Shown piece by piece: positions 355-7,245 of a stretch of DNA of 12,895 nucleotides. The stretch comes from a virus, in the UHGV virus genome UHGV-0182645; one strand, written 5' to 3'. How positions within the stretch are numbered: the first letter of the stretch is position 1; each line of letters begins with the position of its first letter. Made by a program: the position numbers and the translations under genes. The notes below the pieces were generated by a model. That model was given only the letters and a program-made list of their open reading frames with translations, ran no database searches and had not been told where the DNA came from.

Positions 355-459
355 AATACTGACTGTTGCGCCCTGACATTATCGTGGGGTATATTTCTAC
401 GGCACCTTAGAAAAACGGGTGCCGGGATTGGTCTCCCGGTAATGTCAAAGGCGACACAT

Positions 460-482
460 AGACGCCACAAGCGTCTTTTTTG
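460..482 (+). terminator. putative rho-independent terminator (stem AGACGC / GCGTCT, loop CACAA, then TTTTTTG)
   Basis: Hairpin followed directly by a T-run on the plus strand, downstream of the small-ORF cluster. Confidence 0.45.
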
Positions 483-645
483 TTGTCGGCGCACTCGCAC
501 ACCTATCAATGGTGGGCTGTGTGGTGGCTTCTTCGGAAGCGCCGGTTCCCTTTGACGCCGGTAAGACCAACTCCACACAGTCCACCGCCAGTAAGATTGG
601 TCTCTTCGGCGGTGGTATCGTTCACTGTCAAAGGAGGCTGCCAAT

Positions 646-6533: not shown

Positions 6534-6872
6534 TCAGGCTGCTTTTTTATTCAGGTTCCGCTGAGAAATAAATTTTTCAGCAGTATTGATACGACTTAAC
6601 TCTTCCTGAACGCGCATATCATTTTCGACTTCCCACAGATCTACTGCGGTCTGAAGATTAATCCAAAAATCTACAGAAGTATCGAATGCTTTTGCCAGGC
6701 GATATGCCATATCCATCGTTAGCTTACGATTATTATTAACAAGAGCACTTACGGTGTTACGATGAACATGAAGTATTTCTGCTAACTCGTTGATCTTCAG
6801 CTCTAACGGCTCCAGGTATTCGTACAGAAGGATATCACCTACGGTCGTCGGTTTTCTGGTTGCCTGTTTCAT
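6534..6872 (-). CDS. higA: HigA-type antitoxin, XRE-family HTH, 112 aa
   Basis: AAGGG lies about 7 nt before ATG 6872. The protein shows the HigA pattern (PGDIL..EYLEPL...INELAEIL.V....VS.L.N....LT.DMA.RL...F..S..FW.NLQ) and lies immediately downstream of the HigB-like toxin gene. Confidence 0.85.
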   Translation of the reverse strand: MKQATRKPTTVGDILLYEYLEPLELKINELAEILHVHRNTVSALVNNNRKLTMDMAYRLAKAFDTSVDFWINLQTAVDLWEVENDMRVQEELSRINTAEKFISQRNLNKKAA

Positions 6873-6942
6873 TTTTTGCCCTTACTAGCGTGCGTATTAA
6901 GTGGACTCTGGTCAGAACCCGGACCGTAACCGGGAATCTGTT

Positions 6943-7245
6943 TTAGTATTTGTGAGGGTCGAGATACAAGTCCTCGGCCTTTCCGTTAACCCACTTAAAA
7001 ATTAACCTATATTGCTTATTCACCCTTACTGATGAATAGCCATTTAGCTTCCCTGACAGTTCCTCATACCGATTACCTGGTGGTGATCTTAAATCCTTAC
7101 AGGTAGTTGCGGCATTGATAATGTCCAACTTCCGTGACAATGTCATATGAATATCAGGAGGTATCTTTCTATGTGGTGTTGAAAATTCAAAAAAATCATC
7201 AAGCCACGCATCCCTGAAATCCTTTATGTTAATTTTTTTGGTCAT
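6943..7245 (-). CDS. higB: HigB-type toxin (RelE/ParE superfamily, killer-protein family), 100 aa
   Basis: C-terminal signature YEELSGKLNGYSSVRVNKQYRLIFKWVNGKAEDLYLDPHKY matches the HigB killer-protein motif (W/YR..F.F.NGDA..L.Y.DYH) from memory. Toxin-first order with the HTH antitoxin downstream. Confidence 0.85.
   Translation of the reverse strand: MTKKINIKDFRDAWLDDFFEFSTPHRKIPPDIHMTLSRKLDIINAATTCKDLRSPPGNRYEELSGKLNGYSSVRVNKQYRLIFKWVNGKAEDLYLDPHKY

Follow-up and report, generated by a model that had tools for sequence, protein, structure and literature searches.

The window analysed here is the virus genome sequence UHGV-0182645, a stretch of 12,895 nucleotides (nt), and the region under study, positions 400–640 of its plus strand, is the structured leader of an operon for an Icd-like protein and an Rha/Ant-family antirepressor. 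An Rfam scan of the window gives exactly two matches above threshold. One, at 402–481, is a leader or small RNA of the IsrK family (RF01394; 60 bits against a threshold of 50, E = 5e-11). The other, at 505–592, is a gene for C4 antisense RNA (RF01695; 75.3 bits against a threshold of 45, E = 1.4e-13), in which the full model from position 1 to 87 is matched. Both are on the plus strand, as are all features described below unless stated otherwise.

Two short motifs occur on either side of the C4 gene, and the complement of each lies within it. Sites a1 (428–434) and a2 (597–603) both read UUGGUCU and are exactly complementary to a′ (AGACCAA, 564–570). Sites b1 (444–451) and b2 (627–634) both read GUCAAAGG and are exactly complementary to b′ (CCUUUGAC, 549–556). 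The a and b sites fall within a 10-mer, GATTGGTCTC (426–435 and 595–604), and a 9-mer, TGTCAAAGG (443–451 and 626–634), each of which had been recorded as duplicated in the original prediction, made from the letters of the sequence. It had also placed the second copy of the 9-mer against the Shine–Dalgarno (SD) sequence of the open reading frame (ORF) at 646; b2 overlaps that sequence, AAGGAGG at 631–637, so that site and SD together occupy 627–637.

All the elements listed in the original prediction are found where it had put them, and the features exceed chance expectation in shuffles and by fold z-scores. A 10-nt direct repeat arises within 400–640 in 1.65% of 2000 dinucleotide shuffles. 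Three 7-mers occur twice in direct orientation with their reverse complement between the copies; shuffled sequences average 0.025 such cases, and none of the 2000 reaches three. The fold z-scores are −2.46 for 400–482, −5.14 for 505–592, −2.48 for 578–660, and −6.29 for 400–660.

The Icd-like ORF (646–861; 71 amino acids) is 63% identical to P1 Icd over 59 amino acids (E = 6e-28; phrog_1426), and the same ORF on matching Escherichia coli plasmids is labelled 'host cell division inhibitor Icd-like protein' by RefSeq. The antirepressor gene (861–1802) matches Pfam Phage_pRha and phrog_63, 'anti-repressor Ant' (E = 4.7e-62), and its homologue in the phage-plasmid D6 is annotated as anti-repressor Ant. 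Its start codon overlaps the stop codon of the icd-like ORF (TGATG, 859–863). The operon is closed by a terminator-like hairpin at 1811–1829, identified by a terminator scan, with seven G–C pairs out of eight.

The C4 RNA, its target sites and their covariation

The C4 RNA is predicted to fold (−42.9 kcal/mol) into a 17-bp closing stem (510–526/571–587) that encloses two hairpins. Eight of the 17 closing-stem pairs are compensatory among relatives, and 99.5% of its cells are paired. Hairpin I (527–540) is the GCTTC-TTCG-GAAGC hairpin of the original prediction; all of its cells are paired, four of its five pairs are compensatory, and its tetraloop is UUCG or GAAA in relatives. Hairpin II (541–562), which is part of the Rfam consensus, has a five-pair stem (541–545/558–562; one pair compensatory) and a 12-nt loop. 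The loop presents b′, and a′ is single-stranded in the junction. The closing stem, hairpin II, and the two repeat complements are additions to the original prediction.

Membership in the C4 family is indicated by the score, by the closing stem that encloses two covarying hairpins with at least 99.5% of cells paired, by the exposure of a′ and b′ complementary to a2 and b2 with b2 at a ribosome-binding site, and by the same-strand position upstream of icd and an antirepressor gene. Alignment to the annotated c4 of P1 predicts a mature RNA of about 511–589. The closing stem is followed by GCCA (587–590), which resembles the 3′ end of a tRNA.

The site a2 is presented in the loop of a further hairpin (582–615), whose 8-bp stem, CCACCGCC/GGCGGTGG at 582–589/608–615, had been drawn previously. 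Three of its pairs are compensatory in relatives and 89.8% of cells are paired. Since its 5′ arm (582–589) overlaps the closing-stem strand 571–587, the a2 hairpin and the C4 fold exclude each other. The 3′ arm (GGCGGUGG, 608–615) resembles the 5′ strand of the closing stem, and the two closing-stem strands and this arm covary as three strands in D6 and in locus L081, indicating that the alternative of C4 fold or a2-presenting hairpin is conserved. A second exclusion is the competition of a1/b1 with a2/b2 for a′/b′, and these two are the true mutual exclusions of the region. The original prediction had instead taken the hairpins at 400–424 and 422–439 to be mutually exclusive; they have three nucleotides in common, at their bases only, and both are present in the minimum-free-energy fold. 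In terms of predicted duplex energy, a1/b1 pair with a′b′ near-continuously (−28.7 kcal/mol), and a2 and b2 pair separately (−9.2 and −12.9 kcal/mol, respectively).

In the predicted fold of the 5′ end of the processed mRNA (590–700), GGUCUCUU (599–606, comprising part of a2 and its flank) pairs with AGGAGGCU (632–639) of the SD region. The helix is weak and self-sequestering, and includes four G·U pairs.

We gathered 80 loci from IMG/VR by means of the Icd-like protein, and added D6 (both of its loci), P1, P7, RCS47, an Stx2 phage, and Gifsy-1. The 40 distinct leader sequences have about eight variants of a′ and about eight of b′ between them. At almost all loci the local a′ is matched by a1 and a2, exactly or with G·U pairs, and the local b′ by b1 and b2. 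In the group of L035, L039, and L048, a1 matches a′ perfectly and a2 pairs through one G·U. The one clear exception is the IMG/VR locus L036, where a1 (UUGAGAC, about 97 nt upstream of its C4) mismatches the local a′ (GUUCCAA) and a2 matches it. L036 looks like a recombinant.

The intramolecular helices together with a′·a2 and b′·b2 were tested in an alignment of 11 diverse sequences (A2). Pairing holds in 97.2% of cells, and 24 pairs show changes on both sides. The observed values are reached by none of 500 shuffles on four of five measures and by 8 of 500 on the remaining one (further pair types). When the partners are slid by one to three columns, only 33–47% of cells are paired. The pairing a′·a2 is 100% paired with five of seven pairs compensatory, and b′·b2 is 95.5% paired with four of eight pairs compensatory. 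The upstream sites behave in a similar way across relatives: a′·a1 is 98.7% paired with five of seven pairs double-changed, and b′·b1 is 94.3% paired with four of eight pairs double-changed. Compensatory changes are present in all proposed helices, and comparison of homologous regions supports the hairpins as well as the motif pairings.

The variants differ in how well they match one another. The C4 and leader of the window type and of the L035 type cross-pair at 13.5–14 of 15 positions, and those of the window type and of D6 locus 2 at 9–10.5 of 15. From these counts, C4 of the window type is predicted to cross-react with the L035-type leader, but not with that of D6 locus 2. D6 carries two complete C4–icd–antirepressor modules (L085, 19408–22658; L002, 71930–78513), one P1-like and the other homologous to the window. 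Their a′ and b′ differ, and they cross-pair at 8–9 of 15 positions.

The IsrK-type leader and the genomic setting

The IsrK-type RNA is composed of hairpin 1 (402–407/417–422), hairpin 2 (423–427/434–438), and an intrinsic terminator (460–482), and has a predicted fold of −27.7 kcal/mol. All three hairpins are in the minimum-free-energy fold. Hairpins 1 and 2 correspond to the stems CGGCACC/GGTGCCG (400–406/418–424) and CCGGGA/TCCCGG (422–427/434–439) of the original prediction, both of which can be drawn as claimed. Hairpin 1 has two covarying pairs in A2. Site a1 lies mostly in the loop of hairpin 2, with base 434 closing the stem, and b1 is single-stranded in the Rfam isrK consensus. The terminator, previously claimed at the same place, is recovered by the terminator scan as a stem at 460–476 (AGACGC-CACAA-GCGUCU) followed by six T residues. 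The isrK model includes it, and 93.8% of its cells are paired among relatives. By analogy, it would end a short RNA and would be leaky.

Assignment to isrK follows the score, the two 5′ hairpins with the terminator behind them, and the position just before a C4-like RNA and an antirepressor gene, as at the isrK type locus in Gifsy-1. The order isrK, C4-like RNA, antirepressor is found in 15 of 15 isrK-type loci scanned. A second Rfam family that overlaps isrK, c4-a1b1 (RF03163), dates from Weinberg et al. 2010. The window has its architecture of two hairpins with a1 in the second loop, and its threshold is passed by P1, P7, D6 locus 1, L081, and Gifsy-1. The spacer between the IsrK terminator and C4 (483–504) carries an indel of about 22 nt between leaders of the window type and of the D6 type, which are otherwise colinear.

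Upstream of the RNA we place a predicted sigma-70 promoter at 366–395, with −35 element TTGCGC (366–371), an 18-bp spacer, −10 element TATATT (390–395), and a start at about 402. Its position matches that of the Gifsy-1 promoter PisrK (TTGACA-17-TATATT), and the TT of the −35 element and the TAT of the −10 element are invariant in A2.

The window is part of a D6/P1-like phage-plasmid. Its closest kin are E. coli phage-plasmids of about 90 kb and phage D6. Over region 330–900 an E. coli plasmid of about 95 kb (NZ_CP173482) shares 99.3% identity with it, and D6 is 83.6% identical. Of the 295 E. coli matches, 250 are plasmid-borne. Other genes of the window encode baseplate and tail proteins, HigBA, and an hrdC-like exonuclease. 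The HigB toxin (6943–7245) and its helix-turn-helix antitoxin (6534–6872) are on the minus strand (6534–7245), and the pair has been reported for D6-like plasmids. In a search of phages, RCS47, JL22, and vB_EcoM-673R5 each match region 330–900 at two places per genome, and in RCS47 C4 modules are confirmed or annotated at two sites. On NZ_CP173482 (locus L001), RefSeq places a pseudo 'hypothetical protein' over the C4 gene (3178–3237), without any non-coding RNA. The Rha gene is a truncated pseudogene on that plasmid (L001 3530–4240) and is intact in the window.

Proposed control of the antirepressor operon

Taken together, family membership, structures, complementarities with their covariation, and gene context indicate that region 400–640 serves as an RNA leader controlling an antirepressor operon of the immI type in a D6/P1-like phage-plasmid, a reading to which we give a probability of about 0.88. 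Among homologues, repression by C4 has been shown in P1 and P7, and a1·a′ pairing and activation by IsrK in Gifsy-1. For the window element itself, what we infer is the promoter, how the RNA is processed, and which way and how strongly the regulation acts.

In the proposed mechanism, transcription would start at about 402, from a promoter placed by position and conservation. Most transcripts would probably end at 460–482, leaving a short IsrK-family RNA (about 80 nt) in which both a1 and b1 are present. Read-through would give a precursor from which C4 (about 511–589) could be released, as it is by RNase P in P1 and P7. The b′ of C4, in its hairpin loop, would pair with b2, and the a′, in the junction, with a2, both in the leader of the icd-like ORF. 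Because b2 overlaps the SD sequence, C4 would block translation of icd. It would also silence the Rha/Ant antirepressor, through the overlapping stop and start codons and polarity. Such repression would keep the prophage repressed, a role that is established in P1 and is assigned here from homology and covariation. The sites a1 and b1, as near-contiguous mimics of the target, could counter C4 either in cis, within the unprocessed transcript, or in trans, from the short RNA. The exact sequences of a′ and b′ would set the specificity of immunity.

Several observations weigh against this reading. The leader promoter is unflagged by a scan for the sigma-70 consensus, and its −35 hexamer is weak, with three of six matches; the promoter is placed only by homology to Gifsy-1 PisrK and by the conserved positions. 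The upstream element scores below threshold in c4-a1b1 (17.6 bits against 46.7, E = 0.04, at 389–442) and is therefore assigned to isrK only. The consensus of the P1 C1 operator, ATTGCTCTAATAAATTT, has no match in the window with up to three mismatches. For the read-through RNA (402–660), a conformation in which a1b1 pair with a′b′ and the a2 hairpin forms is predicted at −111.3 kcal/mol, and one with the IsrK hairpins and the C4 fold at −102.8 kcal/mol. Unprocessed RNA thus prefers the former, which makes the yield of mature C4 uncertain. In addition, the P1 annotation labels the role of a1/b1 'putative', and the Gifsy-1 authors explained their data by translation of 'orf45', not by a C4 decoy (PMC4825925).

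The original prediction had offered several explanations for the region. Control of the antirepressor-like operon by a small or antisense RNA stands; an attenuator, paired operators, and the analogy with sar-ant of P22 do not. An attenuator would require that the hairpins at 400–424 and 422–439, which as drawn have 422–424 in common and precede the terminator, decide between them whether the terminator forms. However, they are adjacent hairpins that fold together once one to three outer pairs are trimmed, they coexist in the consensus structures of both isrK and c4-a1b1 and are kept together in all relatives, and neither overlaps the terminator, so that we regard this explanation as scarcely probable. 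Duplicated DNA operators for a repressor protein would account for two exact copies of each 9–10-mer flanking the region, and the c4 promoter of P1 is under control of a C1 operator. Operators do not, however, predict that complements of the motifs lie within C4 and covary with them. The repeats behave as RNA target sites for complementary C4 segments on the same strand; they are downstream of the predicted transcription start, and the window is free of matches to the C1 consensus. Operators are accordingly highly improbable. The sar RNA of P22 comes from the strand opposite ant and spans the ant ribosome-binding site. A cis-antisense RNA of this kind, covering the ribosome-binding site of the 646 ORF on the minus strand, could start at a sigma-70-like site from 705 to 677 (TTGGCA-17-TAAATT). 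However, that site lies within conserved coding sequence of the icd-like ORF, such sites occur in the region at chance frequency (3 found, 2.2 expected), the terminator scan finds no minus-strand terminator between 677 and 400, and the covariation is all that of plus-strand RNA. We find a sar-type RNA hard to credit. The opposite-strand origin of sar makes P22 sar-ant an incorrect analogue. The immI region (c4–icd–ant) of P1 and P7, in which the antisense RNA and its target come from one transcript, fits instead, and isrK–anrP of Gifsy-1 is the second close analogue.

The C4 region might also act as a protein-coding sequence. An ATG at 509 opens an ORF of 110 amino acids (509–841), equivalent to 'orf45' of Gifsy-1, a tagged version of which was detected there (PMC4825925), and regulation could operate through its translation. 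However, the substitutions among relatives are paired, compensatory changes in stems, and the Gifsy-1 authors themselves report conservation of nucleotide rather than amino-acid sequence (PMC4825925). Moreover, the ORF is out of frame with icd and ends 20 nt before the start of rha, and is therefore unable to give the coupling seen in Gifsy-1. We consider a coding role very unlikely. An autoregulatory loop like that of CI RNA in satellite phage P4 is unlikely in a lesser degree and could coexist with the preferred C4 control of the ribosome-binding site. C4 would bind a1/b1, alter termination at 460–482, and so adjust its own read-through, rather than be titrated by a decoy. The 3′ end of b1 is 8 nt from the terminator stem, and GGCG (450–453), overlapping it, could pair with CGCC (463–466) of the 5′ terminator arm as an antiterminator. 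At seqA and seqC, P4 CI RNA works by such a mechanism, and the idea was raised for STnc1160 in the Gifsy-1 study (PMC4825925). On the other side, GGCG and CGCC are near-invariant among relatives and the pairing is therefore uninformative by covariation, and constitutive STnc1160/orf45 in Gifsy-1, contrary to prediction, failed to relieve IsrK toxicity (PMC4825925). The pairings a′·a2 and b′·b2 over the ribosome-binding site are fully supported and would explain repression on their own.

With C4 control as the preferred reading, two unannotated RNA genes and four target sites account for the whole structured region, and the operon at 646 and 861 is identified as the antirepressor switch that governs secondary immunity in a D6-like phage-plasmid.

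Relation to known immunity systems

The immI region of phages P1 and P7, with a c4 antisense RNA, icd, and ant1/2, was reportedly described by Citron and Schuster in 1990. The window has the same order on one strand: a1–b1, C4 (b′, a′), a2–b2, icd, and the antirepressor gene. The C4 fold is alike, the Icd proteins are related as given above, and b2 lies over the icd ribosome-binding site in both. A string search reproduces the annotated site coordinates of P1 immI exactly. Differences in a′ and b′ define specificity between P1 and P7, as they would here: the window has AGACCAA and CCUUUGAC, and P1 has CUGUCAA and UCACUAAC. Unlike P1, the window has an isrK-type upstream element with a clear intrinsic terminator, its antirepressor is of the Rha family rather than Ant1/2, and it has no match to the operator consensus of C1, which governs the c4 promoter in P1 according to the P1 annotation. 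In P1, C4 is required for full repression of ant (PMC8198154), and the mature RNA of P1 and P7, of about 77 nt, is released from a precursor by RNase P according to the account of Hartmann et al. 1995 given in PMC11143913. D6-like phages carry the window-type module in addition to a P1-like one, and a c4/icd/antirepressor region and a second region with c4 and icd have previously been reported for a D6-like plasmid (PMC6799933). The module at 400–640 is thus already known, both as curated RNA families and from earlier reports of c4 and icd in this phage group.

Two other phage systems are alike in part. In P22 immI, and as proposed for the window, a temperate phage holds down synthesis of its antirepressor with a small RNA; unlike sar, the regulator in the window is made from the same strand and acts via two short, discontinuous complementarities. 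In P4 immunity, and as proposed for the window, a small RNA is processed from the leader that it controls, and the P4 CI RNA system (seqA, seqB, seqC) has complementary targets both upstream and downstream (in part, PMC4825925). Unlike the window, P4 CI acts by premature termination of transcription, not by occlusion of a ribosome-binding site.

The closest counterpart of the upstream element is in Salmonella Gifsy-1 (locus L088; NC_010392, 34076–34316, minus strand), which has an isrK RNA whose second hairpin holds a1 in its loop and which ends in a leaky terminator, a C4-family RNA, a2/b2, and an antirepressor. There, isrK is at 34316–34240, the Rfam C4 match at 34214–34131, 26 nt downstream of isrK, and the ATG of anrP, which directly follows a2/b2, at 34076. 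Unlike the window, Gifsy-1 is an integrated lambdoid prophage and not a phage-plasmid, it is without icd, so that a2/b2 directly precede anrP, and its C4 region was read by its authors as a translated ORF. The published 'orf45' begins at the AUGG of the C4 5′ end, and the processed STnc1160 of about 80 nt corresponds to C4. The IsrK terminator of Gifsy-1 is partly read through (PMC4825925), and IsrK supplied in trans raises antirepressor translation about 140-fold (Hershko-Shalev et al. 2016, PMC4825925). Only for Gifsy-1 has isrK RNA been described to bind Hfq and to activate the downstream antirepressor in trans (PMC4825925). The published mutants G28A/C162U and G31A/C159U (PMC4825925) map to a1 (UUGGCGU) and a′ (ACGCCAA) of Gifsy-1. 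Compensatory mutants in these two sites mean that the a1·a′ pairing has been demonstrated experimentally. That paper cites P4 CI RNA, not P1 C4, and we found no mechanistic link between IsrK/STnc1160 and C4 in the open-access PMC and bioRxiv literature.

The equation of IsrK with a1b1 and of orf45/STnc1160 with C4, together with the modular variants of specificity, may be the sole fresh point of the analysis. The general proposal is that IsrK-family RNAs are a1/b1 'anti-antisense' partners that, as the short terminated RNA or as the corresponding segment in cis, sequester a′/b′ of C4 and thereby turn on the antirepressor, that orf45/STnc1160 is C4, and that recombining sets of a and b sites form a modular immunity code; we advance it tentatively, at somewhat short of even odds. 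If it is true, the code would let two orthogonal C4 circuits share one phage-plasmid, as in D6. The 'putative' a1/b1 sites of P1 would gain a function, and 'orf45' an identity as an RNA. The IsrK system of Gifsy-1 and the C4 system of P1 would then be one module, a modest joining of two literatures around a mechanism that is itself not new.

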